A stretch of 64,000 bases of DNA from a virus: positions 96,001 through 160,000 of IMG/VR virus record IMGVR_UViG_3300028840_003271; one strand, 5' to 3'. The first letter of the stretch is position 1. Every line of letters begins with the position of its first letter. Below are positions 4,187 to 37,441 of the stretch, piece after piece. The notes below the pieces were generated by a model. That model was not told the origin of the DNA. It ran no database searches and saw only the letters and a program-made list of their open reading frames with translations. Position numbers and translations under genes: made by a program.

Positions 4187-7153
4187 ATGATAAATAGAAT
4201 AGTTATATTTATTGTTATGTTATTAGTTCCGACAGTTGCTGTTGCTGGTTGGCGAAATTCATCTTGTACTGTATATCATGTTACGAGTTTATCTGGAGAT
4301 GGAACAGGAAGTGGTACATTTCGAGATGCTGTTGCTGCTGATGGAGACGATATTGATACACCAAGAATTGTAGTTTTTGATATTGGTGGAATGATTCGGC
4401 CGACTAGTAGAATTAGTATTACGCGAAACAATTTGTATATCGCAGGTCAGACTGCACCAGGTGGAATTACGATTGCTGGAGCGGAAGTAAGGATACCTGG
4501 TACGTTTCATGCCGATGGAGAGCGGGATGAAGGAGATAATACTTATCACGATATTTGTATTCGTCATGTTCGGTTCTATTGTAATCACCTCGATACATCT
4601 TCTCAGCGGGGTAGTCTCCGCAGTTTTTCAGCAATCAACGCAGACCGGTTGATTCTTGACCATTGTTCGTTTATGGGGTCGTCGGATGAGTCGCCTGGAT
4701 TCTATCTCTGCGACGACGTTACGCTGAGTCATTGTGTCATCTTCGATCCGGCTCTTTGTGGTCAGGGCGGGGGATACCATGACGAGGGCAATCACCACTT
4801 TGGTCCTCTGTTCTCGTATTCCGACTTTGGCCAGTATGACGTACATCATTGCCTGCTCGCCAACGTCTACTACAGGATGCCTAATATCGCGGTGCCTGAT
4901 GGTTTGGGCTGCGAAATGATTAACAACGTGTTCTTCAACTGGGAGGCACTTGGTCCTTGGGTGATGTGTAATCATGCTGAGGCTTATTGCAACTACGAAG
5001 GCAACTCGATGATTGCTGGGGCCAGTAGTGTTGCCGCAGGCAAGAAGAAGTTCATGTTCTCGCCAGACGGATCGTATGATCTTTTACTTTATCGTAATGA
5101 TAATGATTATCATATCGACGGGAGCTGGGAGGATTGGACTGCTACACACAGTGTTGATATGTATGATCCCGATGGTGATAAAAATGAACAGGAATCGCGA
5201 TGGACAAGTCCAACATTATGGCCTATTACAAGATCTGCTAGAGCAACTGCTTATACGAACGTACTAGCAAATGCTGGGGCTTGGCCGAGAGATGCGGCTG
5301 TGCGAAAATTGGTTGCTGATGTAGCTAATCTTCAATCTGGTGGTTCAATGGGATTAAAGTATCCAATTGAACATTTTTCGAGTGATAGTGATGGGCCAAC
5401 TGCTGCTGCCAATGACGATGATCGTGATGGAATGAACGATACTTGGGAAGACGAAAATGGGTACGATAAAACCGATGCAACTGATTTTAAAGAATTTGTT
5501 ACTAGTGGTGAGTATGATGGTTTTATGGCAATCGAGTGGTATCTTGAGACGCTGCACGATGCGAAAGAGGCGGTTGATGGTACGCTGCGTACCCTGACGC
5601 TTTCCAAGACCGGAACCGGGGCCATCTGTCCATCATATGGTCGCATTACCCAGGATGGTCTATTCGCCTGGGGTGGACGCGACATGGGGCAGTGGTATGG
5701 GCAGATTGATCTCGTCACCAACTCTCCCTACAGTTACAACGATGGCTCGATTGTTGTGTTACGGGCACGTCCGACTCGCAAGCCGGGTTACGATGATAGT
5801 GTTGCTGGTACGGTCTTTAGCAAATGGGACTGTGACGGCGAGGACATAGATGAACAGACCGCACCTCACATCGAATTCCCGATTGGAAAAGATCTGACAA
5901 TTGATGCCGTTTTTACCAACGCTACTCAACGAACTATTACTACGACTGTTGATGGGACTGGGACTGTATGGGGTGGTGGTGATTATGATGATGGTGAAGT
6001 GGTAACACTTATTGCTTATAGTACTGGTGGTACACACGACTTTAAACAATGGAACCAAACGGCTGGAGATGCTCATGCAATGGATGGGCATGACGGACCA
6101 ATTCTTCAATTTCATGCAGATGGTGATTATACGTGGGAAGCCGAATTTGAGGCAGGTTCGGCCGATGACGTGTTGATCGACGACTTTGACGACCAAGACC
6201 TAAGCGATACGGAATGGGGTAGTTTGACATGGATTCTTGGAGGTGTGCCTGGTGCATTTGGGGCTTCTTCCGGTTTAGAGCATTATGACTTCGGCGGCGG
6301 TGACTATGGCATTCGATACTATCAGCAGTCAGGCGGGATTGCCAATCTGATCCTGCGAAGGGACACGGCCGAACCTCCGAACGGACTTGGGGTAGACCCA
6401 TACTACGAGATTCCCGATGGCACGGTCGCCTTGGCATTTGACATCCACAACAAAGATGACGGGGCCGATGTGGCTAAGCTCGATCCCCAGTTGTCGCCAT
6501 ATGGTAGAAGTTGTCCGTTTGAATATGCAGACAGATTTTATGTGGCATGGAAAGTCGGCGATAGTAGTTGGGGTTGGGACGACCGCGAGGACAATCGGTT
6601 TTGGCACCACTTCAGCGACAGATGGAGGGTGCCAGAGATTGCAGTAGACGCCAGCCATACTGTGGTGATCCCGCTGATTTTCTTAAATGGGCACACTTAC
6701 GATACCGATCATCAGGTCACAGATCAATCCAAGTTTGGCGTATTCTGGGCGGAGTATTTTCTGCATGCCCGCGTTTGGGATGATGCCTGGGTAGTCATGG
6801 ATGATATTCGGTGGTTGCGGGCTGATACGGCCGCGTTGAGTTGGTCGGACGTGACGCCCGTTGCTCACGCGGGAGCTGACCAGACCACAAAGGACTTTGA
6901 TTCATCCGGCGGTGAGACTATTCTTTTGGATGGCACGAAGTCGATTTGCCCAGATGGCGAGATGATTGCTGAGGCAAACTACGATTGGAGTTGGACGGAC
7001 GAAGGTGGGGAGAAGACAGCGGAAGGACCAACTGCACTGGTGACAATTGAGGAAGATGACGGTGACACGGTAACTGTTACTCTTACAATTACGGATGGAG
7101 ATAACGATACGGATACAGATACCGTAGATATTACAATAGCGGCTCCGCCATAA
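4187..7153 (+). CDS. Secreted pectate-lyase-like (PL1-type beta-helix) protein with InlB-B-like repeats and a C-terminal PKD/Ig domain
   Basis: Signal peptide; 'VYHVTSLS..GSGTFRDAV...PRIVVFDIGG', 'IAGQTAPGGITI', 'LDHCSF...DE', 'YRMP', 'DDDRDGMNDTWE', 'PVAHAGADQT...LLDGTKS'. Confidence 0.75.
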   Translation: MINRIVIFIVMLLVPTVAVAGWRNSSCTVYHVTSLSGDGTGSGTFRDAVAADGDDIDTPRIVVFDIGGMIRPTSRISITRNNLYIAGQTAPGGITIAGAEVRIPGTFHADGERDEGDNTYHDICIRHVRFYCNHLDTSSQRGSLRSFSAINADRLILDHCSFMGSSDESPGFYLCDDVTLSHCVIFDPALCGQGGGYHDEGNHHFGPLFSYSDFGQYDVHHCLLANVYYRMPNIAVPDGLGCEMINNVFFNWEALGPWVMCNHAEAYCNYEGNSMIAGASSVAAGKKKFMFSPDGSYDLLLYRNDNDYHIDGSWEDWTATHSVDMYDPDGDKNEQESRWTSPTLWPITRSARATAYTNVLANAGAWPRDAAVRKLVADVANLQSGGSMGLKYPIEHFSSDSDGPTAAANDDDRDGMNDTWEDENGYDKTDATDFKEFVTSGEYDGFMAIEWYLETLHDAKEAVDGTLRTLTLSKTGTGAICPSYGRITQDGLFAWGGRDMGQWYGQIDLVTNSPYSYNDGSIVVLRARPTRKPGYDDSVAGTVFSKWDCDGEDIDEQTAPHIEFPIGKDLTIDAVFTNATQRTITTTVDGTGTVWGGGDYDDGEVVTLIAYSTGGTHDFKQWNQTAGDAHAMDGHDGPILQFHADGDYTWEAEFEAGSADDVLIDDFDDQDLSDTEWGSLTWILGGVPGAFGASSGLEHYDFGGGDYGIRYYQQSGGIANLILRRDTAEPPNGLGVDPYYEIPDGTVALAFDIHNKDDGADVAKLDPQLSPYGRSCPFEYADRFYVAWKVGDSSWGWDDREDNRFWHHFSDRWRVPEIAVDASHTVVIPLIFLNGHTYDTDHQVTDQSKFGVFWAEYFLHARVWDDAWVVMDDIRWLRADTAALSWSDVTPVAHAGADQTTKDFDSSGGETILLDGTKSICPDGEMIAEANYDWSWTDEGGEKTAEGPTALVTIEEDDGDTVTVTLTITDGDNDTDTDTVDITIAAPP

Positions 7154-32958: not shown

Positions 32959-33520
32959 AGAAGAAATTGAACGGTTTTATGAAAAATATTGTAAAGATTG
33001 TGAACATCGTATTGAAAATATTTGTGGTATTTGCGGTTGTATTTTAGATTTGAAACTTAAATGGAGAAATGCTTCTTGTTCTGCAAAACCACCAAAATGG
33101 TTACCAGAACAGCATTCGAGAAAACGAAAACAAAAACATAGTGGTGGTAAAGAAATAGAAGAAGAAAGAAAAAGGGCTCAAAAGGCTTTGGATAAATTTC
33201 AGTTGAAAATGAAAAACGAAAAAGAGCAAAGGCGAAGAGAAAACCAAAAACAAAAAGAAAAATTACGACGAAAACAAAAGCAAAAATTGGAACAGAAGCA
33301 AAAACAACAACAACAACAACAACAGAAGCAACAGCAACAGCAACAGGAAGAAAAACAACAATTAAAACAACAACAGCAACAACAACAAGAAAAAGAACAA
33401 AAATTGAAACAAAATCAAATAAAAAGTAAAGAAGAATTACAGAGAGAAAAAATACGAAGATTTAAACAGATGAAAATTGAAGAAGATGGAAGAAATAGGA
33501 AACATGGTTGTTCGAAATAA
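32936..33520 (+). CDS. Tandem paralog of the Cys-rich protein with a poly-Gln/Lys coiled-coil tail
   Basis: 'CKDCEH....CGICGCIL.LKLKWR..SC..KPPKW'; also ends GCSK; start uncertain (GTG 32936/32942 vs 32873). Confidence 0.55.
   Translation: MVVGVRNKEEIERFYEKYCKDCEHRIENICGICGCILDLKLKWRNASCSAKPPKWLPEQHSRKRKQKHSGGKEIEEERKRAQKALDKFQLKMKNEKEQRRRENQKQKEKLRRKQKQKLEQKQKQQQQQQQKQQQQQQEEKQQLKQQQQQQQEKEQKLKQNQIKSKEELQREKIRRFKQMKIEEDGRNRKHGCSK
33294..33400 (+). repeat. (CAA/CAG)n poly-glutamine microsatellite
   Basis: Runs of CAACAACAA encoding QQQQQQQKQQQQQQ. Confidence 0.85.
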
Positions 33521-33530
33521 AAACAAAAAC

Positions 33531-33566
33531 AAAAACAAAAAAAAGCACCGGCTGAAAACCGGTGCT
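33531..33566 (-). terminator. Rho-independent terminator (minus strand) closing the TnpB-like transcript
   Basis: Minus strand AGCACCGG-TTTTCAG-CCGGTGCT followed by a T-run. Confidence 0.85.
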
Positions 33567-33844
33567 GGATAACCTTTCATTACCTTGACAGTACTTCTCA
33601 GTATGTTTGTTAAAGTAGACTTATATCAAAACTGTAGAAACACATATTTAAAATTGTAATACAGTCCCATGGTTTTTTATATCTTTATAAGATTAATAAT
33701 AAAAACCGACAATTTTGATACAAGTAGAAAAAAGTATAAAAAATCGTATTGGTTAGAATAATATATATTTTTATTTTTACTCAACCATTACTTTTTACAT
33801 CTATTTTGTTTATAGATTATAATAAAAGTAGAACCAATACGAAA
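33567..33844 (-). ncRNA. Putative omegaRNA-like guide RNA scaffold plus 18-nt guide
   Basis: ORF-free; 11-bp stem 33832-33842/33744-33754; 17-bp stem 33709-33725/33619-33635 whose two imperfect pairs are G-U only on the minus strand; nested hairpins; ends GTCAA then 18 nt then the terminator. Confidence 0.6.
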
Positions 33845-35347
33845 TTATTTTAGTATGATGTATCCAAATCTTGGACTCTTTTCGTTTTTTGGATTTATTG
33901 GTTTCAAATTGGAAGATTTAATATTTTCGTATTTTTTCCAATTCCAACCTTTTCTTCCTAAATGTACGTATTCATCATAGTTCCATAACCACCACCCAAC
34001 TTCTTTATGATTTTGAGCAGCATTAATATCTGCATGACTTTTATATCCACATTTAGTACAAACAAATTTTTTCTTATTACGATTATCTGGATGAACATAT
34101 CCACACTTCAAACATCTTCGTGATAAGTATCTTGAAGGTATAGATATATATGGAATTTTTTGATTAATACATTTACGAATTAATATACGACCAAGGGCTT
34201 GACCAAATTCTCCGTTTGTAACACCGGTTGTAATATTATCAATACATAAAAGCAACTTGTTTTTAACAACATAAGCAATAATTTTGTTTGCTATGGGTTC
34301 AAGTAATCTTTCATGCTCTTTTAATGTATCTTGAACTCCACGTCTTAATGAAGTTCGTTCTTTTGTAGTAACTGCTTTTGGATTACGAATTCTTTTACCA
34401 TTTTTCAAACCCTTTTTATATAAACGAGCACCAATTTTTTGATTAAGCTTTTGTCTTTGTGAACGATTATTCAACATTTTTTCTGTAGCTTTTTCAATAT
34501 CTATTTGGTCAATTGAAGATGAATAAGCAACAAGCGTTTCTTTATCTTTTCCAATATCTATACCAAAAGAACCTTGTGGAGTATAAGACCAAACAATTGG
34601 AACGAGAATTTTAACATTCAAAGTGAATTCATTATTTAATTTATTATGATGTAGTTTTGGAACGAGATTTCCACCACCCCACACGATCATATTTTTAAGA
34701 TTAGGATATGCTTTACGAGTACGGCTTGGAATACTATAAGCCATTTTAATAAAAGTGTCGTCACCAACATAAAGTTGCATTAAACCTTTAGTTGGTTTTT
34801 CTGGAGTGAGATCTACCCAAATACTATCAGCTTTAGCTGAATTTTTTGTTTTTGGTAATTTAGCATCGCTACATCTTAGTGTATATTTACGAATATGATT
34901 ACCATGCTGTGGAATTTTTTTGTTTCGTCCACCGTATCCACTTTTATTACCATGAACAGCATAAGTAACTATATTTTTCGCAAAATTTGTACAAAAATTG
35001 TATTTATCAAATATGGGTTTATATTCTTCATATGTTTTTGATAAAGTTTGTTTATAAAGATATGCTGGTGTATCTTTTTTACAACTATTAAGTGTAACAA
35101 ATTTGATATTACTAACTTTTTCATTACCTTTTTTGTCAGTATAAACAATTGTTGTAGTTTTCAATTTACGATGTAATAATGTGCTAATTTCTTGAGCACA
35201 TTTTTTTTGTTGTTTTAAAAAGCGATGTATTGTTGGAAGCTGTCTTTTAGACGGATGAAGATTAATAGCCACGTCTTTATATGACCACCCCATACATTGC
35301 CAAGAGGTTTTACCGAGTTCAAATTGAGCTTGGTTTTGATTGTTCAT
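33845..35347 (-). CDS. tnpB: TnpB/Cas12f-like RNA-guided RuvC protein (no transposase nearby)
   Basis: RuvC-I 'FGIDIG' (D264), RuvC-II 'LCIDNI' (D370 at the usual Glu position), Zn finger CLKC...CTKC, RuvC-III 'HADINAAQN' (D440); SD AGGAG. Confidence 0.8.
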
Positions 35348-35524
35348 TTTTTTTCTCCTAAAAAGTTATATGACCTCATAGATTCAAGTAGTGTTATTAC
35401 ACACTTTTGATAAATCTGACAGACACATGTCTGTAAATAATAAACAATAAATAATAACAAAATTTGAAGTAAAATATTATGTTGTTATAGATTTAATAAT
35501 CTTTTATTAAGAAGATATTTGGCT

Positions 35525-35640
35525 AAATTTGAACATCCTTAGAGATGTTAAAAGTTTTTTTGTAAGTATACATAACCATGAATTTAGTAGTCTTACTAAG
35601 ACACATAAATAAAATTCGAACATCTAACGATGTTAAAGTT
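35525..35640. repeat. Two degenerate hairpin direct repeats upstream of tnpB
   Basis: AAATTTGAACATCCTTAGAGATGTTAAAAGTT (35525-35556) and AAATTCGAACATCTAACGATGTTAAAGTT (35612-35640), each with an AACATC/GATGTT stem. Confidence 0.7.
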
Positions 35641-35644
35641 ATAG

Positions 35645-35980
35645 TTATACCATTTTCTTTTGATTTTTATCCCATTTCATCCAACCACCATCAGGCAACC
35701 AATTTCCATCAGGATCTTTACGTCTTGGAAATAGTCCACCACCCTTCTTATTAGCACCAAACGATAATCTTGCAAAACAATCTAAACATTTAACTTCGTA
35801 GTATTTATTTTCGTCCTTATCATTACGAACAGAGAATCGAACATTGTTTTTACCACATTTTCCACAAGTGTTGTGACTAAAAACTTCCTCAACTTGAGAC
35901 AATTCTTCAAACATATCTCTTTGAGTATCGGATTCAATTTCTACCCACAAACTGTCTGTTACACGATATTTAACTTTCAT
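35645..35980 (-). CDS. Zn-finger protein (CGKC...CLDC) next to the annealase
   Basis: 111 aa, two CxxC motifs. Confidence 0.55.
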   Translation of the reverse strand: MKVKYRVTDSLWVEIESDTQRDMFEELSQVEEVFSHNTCGKCGKNNVRFSVRNDKDENKYYEVKCLDCFARLSFGANKKGGGLFPRRKDPDGNWLPDGGWMKWDKNQKKMV

Positions 35981-36694: not shown

Positions 36695-37441
36695 CTAAAT
36701 TTTTAGAGTAACTACCTTAGATTCAAAATCACCTTCTAACACATTTAAAACTTGTTCTAAAATTAGTTTACTTCGATAAGTAGATGGAGTTTTTTCAAAT
36801 CTTATTCGAATTATTCTCCAACCATTACCAATAACCAATCCATTTTTTTGACGGTCTGCTGCTTTAGTTTGTTTTAATTCTTCTACACCCCATATGGGTA
36901 AAAAGTGTGACGGTCCATCAATTTCAATAACAGTTTTTTCACGAGGAAGAAAAAGGTCAAAGTGCAATTTGTCGTTTTTGACTTTATGTTCAGCGTGTAA
37001 TTGAACATTATATTCTTTTTGTAATTCTTGATGTAAAAATCGCTCAAGACGTGATCCATCTTTAAGTGTTTGAAGTCGAGCTTTTGTTGCTTTTGTATGA
37101 ATTCTTTCTTTATCTTTAGCGTCTCGATTATTCCATTCTTCTTTATGTTTGTTGGATATTTCTTGTCGTTCTTTATCTGAAAGATTTTCCCAAGATTTTG
37201 CACGACTTCGAGCAATTTGGTCTTTTATTTTTTGAGATCGTTTTTTACCTTTTGTAGGATGTGGGGTTCTTTTTAAAGCATCTTTTTGTGCTTGAGACTT
37301 ATCTTTGATTGGAATACCTAATTCTACCATCTCTTTTTTAAGTTTAAATGGAGATGTTTTAAGTTTATTTGCTATCCAGGCAATACTATAACCTTGATTA
37401 TGATACCAGTCATTTATTTGTTTTTGTTTTTCGGATGACAT
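36695..37441 (-). CDS. Homing-endonuclease-like protein (HTH/NUMOD3-like plus Vsr/DUF559 nuclease)
   Basis: 'HPTKGKKRSQKIKDQI', 'SRLERFL', 'FDLFLP...VIEIDGPSHF', 'GWRIIRI'. Confidence 0.65.
   Translation of the reverse strand: MSSEKQKQINDWYHNQGYSIAWIANKLKTSPFKLKKEMVELGIPIKDKSQAQKDALKRTPHPTKGKKRSQKIKDQIARSRAKSWENLSDKERQEISNKHKEEWNNRDAKDKERIHTKATKARLQTLKDGSRLERFLHQELQKEYNVQLHAEHKVKNDKLHFDLFLPREKTVIEIDGPSHFLPIWGVEELKQTKAADRQKNGLVIGNGWRIIRIRFEKTPSTYRSKLILEQVLNVLEGDFESKVVTLKI

Follow-up and report, generated by a model that had tools for sequence, protein, structure and literature searches.

What is a single TnpB/Cas12f-like gene doing in a phage genome, set between RNA modules, three on each side, and without any transposase? 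This question is raised by the locus at positions 33535–35634 on the minus strand of a 64,000-nucleotide (nt) stretch of viral DNA, here called the window, which comprises bases 96001–160000 of the complete IMG/VR phage record IMGVR_UViG_3300028840_003271, a genome of 170,004 bp with direct terminal repeats and a guanine-plus-cytosine (GC) content of 32%. An earlier sequence-only reading of the window had described a domesticated effector, served by a single omega-RNA of about 280 nt lying outside the open reading frame (ORF), with the motif TCAA as its right end and a fixed 18-nt guide (33584–33567), bounded by a terminator and directed against a fixed target. The results presented below suggest a different organisation. 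We tentatively favour, as a whole package that we rate as possible rather than probable, the interpretation that the locus constitutes a self-contained phage RNA-guided nuclease with six cognate RNA handles, in which the segment following the handle is guide-like.

A Cas12f/TnpB-Fold Protein with an Altered RuvC Site

The protein product, P0001, carries RuvC aspartates and zinc-binding cysteines (Table 1), and its gene has its own Shine-Dalgarno sequence, AGGAG at 35359–35355, 7 nt ahead of the ATG at 35347, all in agreement with the RuvC/Zn-finger protein that had been recognised earlier. Sequence libraries recognise only the C-terminal Zn-ribbon/RuvC-III part. The sole family match over threshold was to Pfam PF07282 (Cas12f1-like TNB domain; residues 385–446, E 2.6e-13), PHROG families annotated as transposase also match, and the NCBIfam guided_TnpB profile (NF040570) yielded 43.4 bits against a cut-off of 100, over the C-terminal 60 residues only. 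The scores for IS200_TnpB (15.5 against 425) and IS607_TnpB (15.6 against 350) in NCBIfam were likewise below cut-off.

Structure prediction extended the assignment to the entire protein. An AlphaFold2 (AF2) model based on 34 homologues, with a predicted local distance difference test (pLDDT) value of 76.7 and a predicted template modelling (pTM) score of 0.77, was aligned by Foldseek over about 450–490 columns with AsCas12f, SpCas12f1, ISFba1 TnpB, mimivirus Fanzor2 and ISDra2 TnpB (E 1e-13 to 3e-11); the last 40 or so amino acids (aa) are predicted to be disordered. The whole of P0001, including its N-terminal half, therefore models as a Cas12f/TnpB fold, and the N-terminal half is an ordinary WED/REC lobe, contrary to the earlier impression that the first 250 or so residues were non-canonical. 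With a family profile, the closest solved relatives were OsCas12f (2.8e-23) and AsCas12f (9e-19), with ISDra2 TnpB at 1e-5.

In the profile alignment D370 falls on the catalytic Glu of Cas12f, giving a RuvC triad of D-D-D, not D-E-D. A HMMER scan of 1.84 billion representative sequences produced 1530 matches, 130 of them below 1e-10, the best showing 43% identity in the C-terminal half. Residues were counted in the top 150 family representatives: the RuvC-I position is Asp in 138 of 138, the RuvC-II position Asp in 141 of 143 and Glu once, and the RuvC-III position alternates between Asp (72), His (55) and Gln (20), while the four zinc cysteines are each kept in 147–148 of the 150. Moreover, the ESM-Atlas clusters nearest to P0001 are 100% viral. 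Judged by these sequences, the clade is a distinct, virus-associated, Cas12f/TnpB-like group of the form D-D-[D/H/Q] with an active site that appears altered rather than decayed, and P0001 itself, given its D-D-D RuvC site and intact Zn ribbon, is probably an active nuclease.

Six RNA Modules Flanking the Gene

The sequence beyond the stop codon is highly paired, as the sequence-only reading had observed. On the gene's strand, region 33531–33850 folds at -72 kcal/mol, compared with -49.1 +/- 4.4 kcal/mol for shuffled sequences (z -5.24; 0 of 100 as good), and it is better by 11 kcal/mol than the opposite strand (-60.6 kcal/mol, z -3.85). The 11-bp and 17-bp stems described previously are both present, the two wobbles of the latter being G-U pairs on the gene's strand and A-C on the other, and the unit does end in an intrinsic terminator (Table 1). 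What had been taken for one scaffold is, nevertheless, a series: strand-specific structured RNA does lie outside the ORF, but as three tandem copies of a module (D1–D3), and the 5' leader contains three more (U1–U3).

In each module a two-tier hairpin of about 40 nt, P2, is joined on its 5' side through a single C to an adjacent helix, P1, and is followed by AUGR. P2 comprises an outer stem of 5–7 bp, a 5' internal loop of 6–9 nt, an inner stem of 4–6 bp and a 3' bulge of 2–6 nt, with the consensus NNN-TTT/AAA-NNN for the outer stem and mostly NTCT/AGAN for the inner one. P1 takes different forms; U1–U3 have a local hairpin on the 5' side of the C, in D1 and D2 the helix encloses P2 together with a 27-nt segment (P1a-C-P2-AUGG-27 nt-UUCU-P1b), and in D3 the helix ahead of the C is P1b of D2. 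D1 begins 2 nt past the stop codon of the P0001 gene. The ATGG is not consistently a start codon in the window's modules.

Table 1. Features of the P0001 locus, with positions in the window.
Feature	Positions	Strand	Description
U1	35576..35634	(-)	P1 hairpin 35634-35619; C 35618; P2 35617-35580; ATGG 35579-35576; then 26-nt segment 35575-35550
U2	35485..35549	(-)	P1 hairpin 35549-35532 (AACATC/GATGTT stem as in U1); C 35531; P2 35530-35489, with one A-C mismatch; ATAA instead of ATGR; then 50-nt A/T-rich spacer
U3	35374..35434	(-)	P1 hairpin 35434-35419; C 35418; P2 35417-35380; ATGAGG 35379-35374; then the leader of the P0001 gene
P0001 gene	33845..35347	(-)	500-aa Cas12f/TnpB-fold protein; RuvC D264/D370/D440; Zn ribbon C412, C415, C430, C433
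D1	33744..33842	(-)	P1a 33842-33832, paired with P1b 33754-33744 (11 bp); C; P2 33830-33789; ATGG; 27-nt segment 33784-33758, forming a third hairpin; TCT; T-run after P1b
D2	33619..33725	(-)	P1a 33725-33709, paired with P1b 33635-33619 (17 bp, two G-U pairs); C; P2 33707-33671; ATGG; 27-nt segment 33666-33640; TTCT
D3	33567..33618	(-)	C 33618, abutting P1b of D2; P2 33617-33581 (outer stem TACTTT/AAGGTA, inner stem TACT/AGTA); ATGA 33580-33577; 10-nt tail 33576-33567
Intrinsic terminator	33535..33566	(-)	10-bp stem (33566-33544) with 6 G-C pairs, 3-nt loop, T-run; ends the transcription unit

The six modules share structure and little sequence. Only one mismatch occurs among 67 P2 pairs; three pair types are found at each of outer-stem positions 1–3 and at inner-stem position 1, the remaining pairs being conserved, and RNAalifold detected compensatory double changes in 10 of 14 pairs of five modules, all of this covariation being between paralogous copies within one locus. 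A C-P2-ATGR descriptor gave 24 matches in 340 kb (both strands), equal to shuffled sequences and hence no genome-wide enrichment, but five of the 24 are on the gene's strand within the 2.1-kb locus, against an expectation of about 0.15. The hairpin motif of U1 and U2 occurs nowhere else in the 170 kb. No Rfam family matched the trailer or the leader. Hammerhead, pistol and hepatitis delta virus (HDV)-like topologies, compared by eye, were rejected, their core motifs and pseudoknots being absent.

Two further sequence features overlap the modules. Within D1, on the opposite strand and facing the 3' end of the P0001 ORF, a promoter-like sequence, TTTACA-18-TATAAT (11/12; 33794–33823 (+)), could drive an antisense RNA or could be a chance match in AT-rich DNA, such sites not being enriched in the region. 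The ATGAGG of U3 starts an 11-codon mini-ORF (35379–35344 (-)), without a Shine-Dalgarno sequence of its own, whose TGA overlaps the ATG of the P0001 gene (ATGA); it is probably due to chance, although it could provide translational coupling.

Analogous RNA Units at Related Loci

Eight contigs encoding relatives of P0001 were fetched, with flanks of up to 5–6 kb per side, and in all eight the gene lies amid phage genes (rIIB, SSB, sigma factors, tRNAs, dUTPase). Structured RNA is located beside the gene in seven of the eight loci, repeat units in six, and units on both sides in five (P0002, P0003, P0004, P0005 and P0006), where they are on the same strand; in the four of these two-sided loci that were checked, the units are confined to the vicinity of the gene within the fetched flanks. 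P0002, P0004, P0005 and P0006 share a pseudoknot topology in which a stem, S1, encloses a hairpin whose loop pairs with sequence 3' of S1. The stems of these units covary between copies, and the downstream unit begins 2–8 nt past the stop codon, the corresponding distance for D1 being 2 nt. The window's P2 (…ACTTTT/AAAAGT…) resembles the S1-plus-hairpin of the relatives and is likely to be homologous to it.

The units of other relatives differ in form. P0003, the closest relative, has units on both sides that consist of a hairpin, a 12-nt tail that is conserved, and a second hairpin, ending in a T-run and with a loop of 26–29 nt; an apparent kinship between this downstream loop and the 27-nt segment of D2 (15/17 nt) was rejected, since it did not exceed that of shuffled sequences. 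P0009 (contig L013, which has only 191 nt upstream of the gene) encodes a D-D-H member and has two tandem downstream units, the second of which is provided with a promoter matching the sigma70 consensus at 12/12 positions (L013:1597–1625 (+), between the units) and with its own bidirectional terminator, and therefore constitutes a separate small-RNA gene. P0017 (L014) has one downstream RNA of about 200 nt, ending about 12 nt before a terminator. No open reading frames were found in the relatives' units, a comparison of these units with Rfam produced no match and only tRNAs were found, upstream in two relatives, and a metagenome pattern scan for the P0004-type unit produced no match.

At the P0004 locus (L006), the TnpB-like gene and the gene after it are each preceded by the same ordered pair of units and by a leader that is similar in both cases (…TACACA..AGGA…), at 4860–4990 and 6331–6460, and the order (A B)-gene-(A' B')-gene looks as if the leader cassette had been duplicated along with the gene.

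The relatives also provide an indication of where a programmable part may reside. The P0005 phage was recovered from five samples (L007, L008, L009, L026 and L027) in which the TnpB-like genes differ by 0–6 nt in 1473 and the flanks are near-identical. Within its units (L007:4690–4990 and 6491–6560), however, a 6-nt linker directly 3' of S1, together with a 1-nt bulge, differs completely from one allele to another in each of the five units. There are at least three discrete linker alleles. These are found again in independent samples from ENA and JGI, in combinations that change from sample to sample. At the P0002 locus one unit shows the same allele pattern, and in P0009 it is mainly this place that distinguishes the two units. 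Alleles that differ so sharply 3' of the main helix suggest that the programmable part lies there, and the variable position would be equivalent to the 'AUGR + variable' segment of the window's modules.

Just upstream of the P0005 unit array lies a tRNA (L007:4594–4665, compared with L009) of which one variant has the anticodon stem swapped for a different, still complementary sequence, the rest being identical, and this points to mosaic recombination in the tRNA region.

Genomic Context and the Possibility of a Selfish Element

The P0001 gene is present in a single copy in the complete 170,004-bp phage, and neither a Y1 transposase (PF01797) nor a serine recombinase (PF00239) was found there. 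The absence of tnpA, serine recombinase and CRISPR array that had been noted for the window thus holds for the entire genome, in which a repeat scan revealed no CRISPR-like array and only two 24-bp tandem arrays, distant from the P0001 gene. These two long arrays (core AATAGTTGCTGAT) lie outside the window at genome positions 743–1126 and 65228–65803, 64 kb apart, with nearly identical units; they are not CRISPR arrays and are probably coding repeats of paralogous genes.

Within a long leftward operon the cassette comes last, after an upstream gene whose stop is at 35645, and a rightward gene ending at 33520 converges on it. Its flanks are unique in the phage genome, and no pair of left-end and right-end hairpins of an insertion sequence (IS) was found around it. 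An HNH/homing-endonuclease-like gene of 248 aa (window 36695–37441 (-); PHROG 559 and 9084) is located 1.3 kb upstream of the P0001 gene in the same operon, which suggests that selfish or nuclease genes accumulate in this part of the phage. Searches for relatives of the locus or phage in INPHARED with blastn and tblastn yielded at best 26–29% identity, IMG/VR scans using P0001 and a neighbouring gene gave no match, and neither did an exact-protein look-up of P0001.

One alternative to the interpretation that we favour is that this is an ordinary selfish element, a TnpA-less IS200/IS605-type (IS1341-like) TnpB cassette that entered between the upstream stop at 35645 and a pre-existing terminator of the operon. 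The trailer would then be an omega-RNA with flanking terminator-region DNA as its guide, the leader modules would be a left-end structure or duplications, and the element would persist by RNA-guided homing into related phages during co-infection. Such behaviour would be default TnpB biology (Meers et al., as reviewed in PMC13565253); free-standing homing genes are common in large phages, the HNH gene is close by, and the cassette occupies the very end of the operon, before a terminator that the operon would need in any case. Moreover, the clade appears mainly viral with each member in single copy, and two relatives are located in tRNA regions, like T4 SegB. On the other hand, the phage has no transposase or second copy and no recognisable pair of transposon ends, the putative right end, TCAA, lies within a conserved hairpin, and IS ends do not feature several modules on either side of the gene. 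The cassette's GC content of 27–31% is the same as that of the neighbouring genes, so that insertion was not recent; a recent insertion, which we had considered, is unsupported. Overall we regard a selfish element as unlikely. The earlier description of the module as domesticated finds no support, as a selfish homing element upstream of a pre-existing terminator fits equally well.

Candidate Guides and the Proposed Single Omega-RNA

The organisation originally proposed, one omega-RNA with a fixed 18-nt guide, derives some credit from the strong structure and terminator-bounded end of the trailer, from the lack of a transposase, from the single downstream RNA of P0017 and from the existence of short fixed guides in TldR systems. 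Its two key assignments fail, however. TCAA (33588–33585) straddles the 3' bulge and outer stem of P2 in D3 and, since it is inside this conserved hairpin, is not an IS right end; and the 18-mer consists of the last 4 nt of P2 in D3, the conserved AUGA and 10 nt, and folds as a 6-bp hairpin. Furthermore, the trailer consists of a module repeated three times, and upstream the same module is present three times more.

Nor did the 18-mer have a convincing target. It produced no match to its own phage at up to three mismatches and none to IMG/VR, and the eight matches among the GTDB representatives (185,579 species genomes), where about 17 exact matches were estimated to be expected by chance, all fall within ORFs that encode VMKGYP; three are in one homologous gene, and none extends past 18 nt. 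We therefore consider a single omega-RNA with this guide very improbable. What we retain of the earlier proposal is, in altered form only, a short segment separating the final RNA handle from the terminator, the 10 nt at 33576–33567. Other candidate guide segments gave chance-level or ribosome-binding-site-like matches to their own phage, and two candidate 20-mers had no match in IMG/VR.

A Proposed Mode of Action

In the interpretation that we favour, one transcription unit would carry the P0001 gene and six copies of what is likely its cognate RNA handle, and P0001 would bind these handles as TnpB and Cas12f recognise the hairpin/pseudoknot core in their own guide RNAs. The programmable, guide-like part would be the segment immediately 3' of the handle, with a length of 26–27 nt in U1, D1 and D2 and 10 nt in D3, while in U3 it is the Shine-Dalgarno/AUG leader of the gene itself. 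Since U3 abuts this leader, the ribosome-binding site of P0001 would occupy the guide position, and we propose that translation is thereby subject to feedback repression through operator mimicry. Ribosomal proteins and T4 gp32, gp43 and RegA are known examples of operator mimicry. In the trailer, the modules would supply trans-acting RNA or RNAs for ribonucleoproteins directed against other genomes, and the likely role would be one of genome conflict, in which a rival phage, a mobile element or the host is cut or blocked, or the system homes into related phages; domestication and selfish homing both fit.

A different possibility is that the modules carry no guide and are only cis-acting elements of the mRNA, a 5' operator or attenuator and a 3' stabilising or terminating structure, or else inhibitory RNAs resembling the pseudoknot repeats of type III toxin-antitoxin systems, the true guide of P0001, if any, being elsewhere or non-existent. 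The position of U3 against the ribosome-binding site is in keeping with this, as are the relatives' last units, which end about 12–35 nt before the start of the TnpB-like or next gene, the T-runs in which many units end, and the form of D1 and D2, closed three-way junctions with no obviously free segment. Against it, only the terminator lies 3' of D1–D3 on that strand in the window, so that these are not leaders; the second P0009 unit has its own consensus promoter and terminator; units occur only beside the TnpB-like gene within the fetched flanks; and all characterised TnpB/Cas12-fold proteins of this architecture use a guide RNA, which is established knowledge (PMC10097598). We consider a purely cis-acting or inhibitory function unlikely.

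Several observations weigh against the handle-and-guide interpretation itself. The 5' leader as a whole folds no better than shuffled sequences (z -1.42), U2 is the weakest, degenerate copy, and the covariation within the window is that of paralogues. In both D1 and D2 the 27-nt segment lies within P1 and pairs with itself as a hairpin, and therefore looks structural rather than guide-like; that of D1 is also low-complexity A/T. TnpB and Cas12 RNAs carry a pseudoknot directly before the guide (PMC10097598), and none was found directly before any candidate guide in the window's modules. Among the relatives, P0008 (L011) has no intergenic space and no flanking non-coding DNA. Finally, the candidate guides had no target in the phage, in IMG/VR or, for the 18-mer only, in the GTDB representatives, and no promoter target was found.

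A bolder extension, which we judge to be quite unlikely, is that such loci represent, for the TnpB/Cas12 lineage, a guide-RNA arrangement of a third kind besides transposon ends and CRISPR arrays. Fixed handles, divergent in sequence and conserved in structure, would flank a virus-only D-D-[D/H/Q] effector clade, and an internal guide would occupy the short stretch from the handle helix to whatever structural element comes next. In the relatives this stretch is 6–8 nt long, and its sharply different alleles in phages that are otherwise near-identical would imply rapid retargeting in phage-phage or phage-host conflict. The 5' leader copy would serve autoregulation through the same recognition.

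If the modules are the RNAs of the effector, they would amount to several guides for a miniature nuclease of the Cas12f/TnpB type without a CRISPR array, trans-activating CRISPR RNA (tracrRNA) or transposon, originating from a clade that is large, seemingly associated with viruses and unusual in having Asp at RuvC-II, and they could yield compact and differently programmed editors. The allele pattern of the relatives offers a concrete handle on the nucleotides that set specificity. The locus also bears on the exaptation of TnpB in phages, whether as a weapon, for homing or for regulation, and even if it were a remnant of a homing TnpB, it would still be a clean case of a transposase-free TnpB kept in a large phage of the virulent type.

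Comparison with Known Systems

By both fold (E 1e-13, about 480 columns) and profile, P0001 is best matched by Cas12f (AsCas12f, OsCas12f, SpCas12f1; PDB 8J12, 9NZQ, 9I8Y), with which it shares a similar size (about 420–500 aa) and the WED-REC-RuvC-Zn-ribbon layout, and Cas12f also uses a long structured RNA encoded beside its gene. In contrast to Cas12f systems, the phage carries no CRISPR array or adaptation genes, the RuvC-II residue is Asp and not Glu, and the RNA takes the form of divergent modules on both sides rather than a tracrRNA and identical repeats.

Transposase-less, 'IS1341-like' organisation of TnpB genes is known. The TnpB proteins of IS200/IS605 elements (ISDra2, PDB 8H1J/8EXA; ISFba1, 8IAZ) have the same fold and a non-coding RNA on the same strand from the end of the ORF, but P0001 scores 43 against 100 with the guided_TnpB profile and has a D-D-D triad, and its locus lacks TnpA, transposon ends and extra copies, has modules upstream as well, and showed neither a pseudoknot before a guide nor an Rfam match. 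TldR proteins (PMC10705468, PMC13622181) are similarly TnpB-derived, transposase-free and partly phage-borne, with fixed short guides beside the gene that can be as short as 9 nt in the oppF clade (PMC13622181). However, their RuvC domain is degenerate or truncated. In P0001 three acidic residues remain and the C-terminal Zn ribbon is complete, and RuvC-III in its clade varies between D, H and Q without decaying; nor was a promoter target found.

TranC/CauTranC9, Cas12r, Cas-lambda and Cas12p 'hacker' are also compact effectors of the TnpB/Cas12 lineage encoded by phages, and phage TranC and type V effectors are thought to act in conflicts between mobile elements (10.64898/2026.03.27.714800; 10.64898/2026.04.20.719267; 10.1101/2025.01.20.633832). 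They are functional analogues, but are accompanied by true CRISPR arrays with identical repeats of 32–38 bp and spacers matching phages or mobile elements, while the repeats in the window share structure and little sequence and have no spacer-like match. Type III toxin-antitoxin (ToxIN-like) systems carry tandem pseudoknot RNA units that precede a nuclease gene, from which a terminator may separate them, and in this they resemble the P0005 locus, but their toxin is an endoribonuclease of the ToxN/AbiQ kind and their repeats are near-identical and 34–45 nt long, in contrast to the Cas12f/TnpB fold of P0001 and its divergent, two-sided units.

The locus thus lacks several marks of an IS200/IS605 element, in that the score with the hidden Markov model (HMM) is too low, the triad is not D-E-D and no transposon ends or TnpA are present; it departs from CRISPR-Cas12f and TranC systems in having no array, and from TldR in retaining the RuvC site. 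Among the systems compared, it appears to work most like a Cas12f or TnpB with a natural single-guide RNA.

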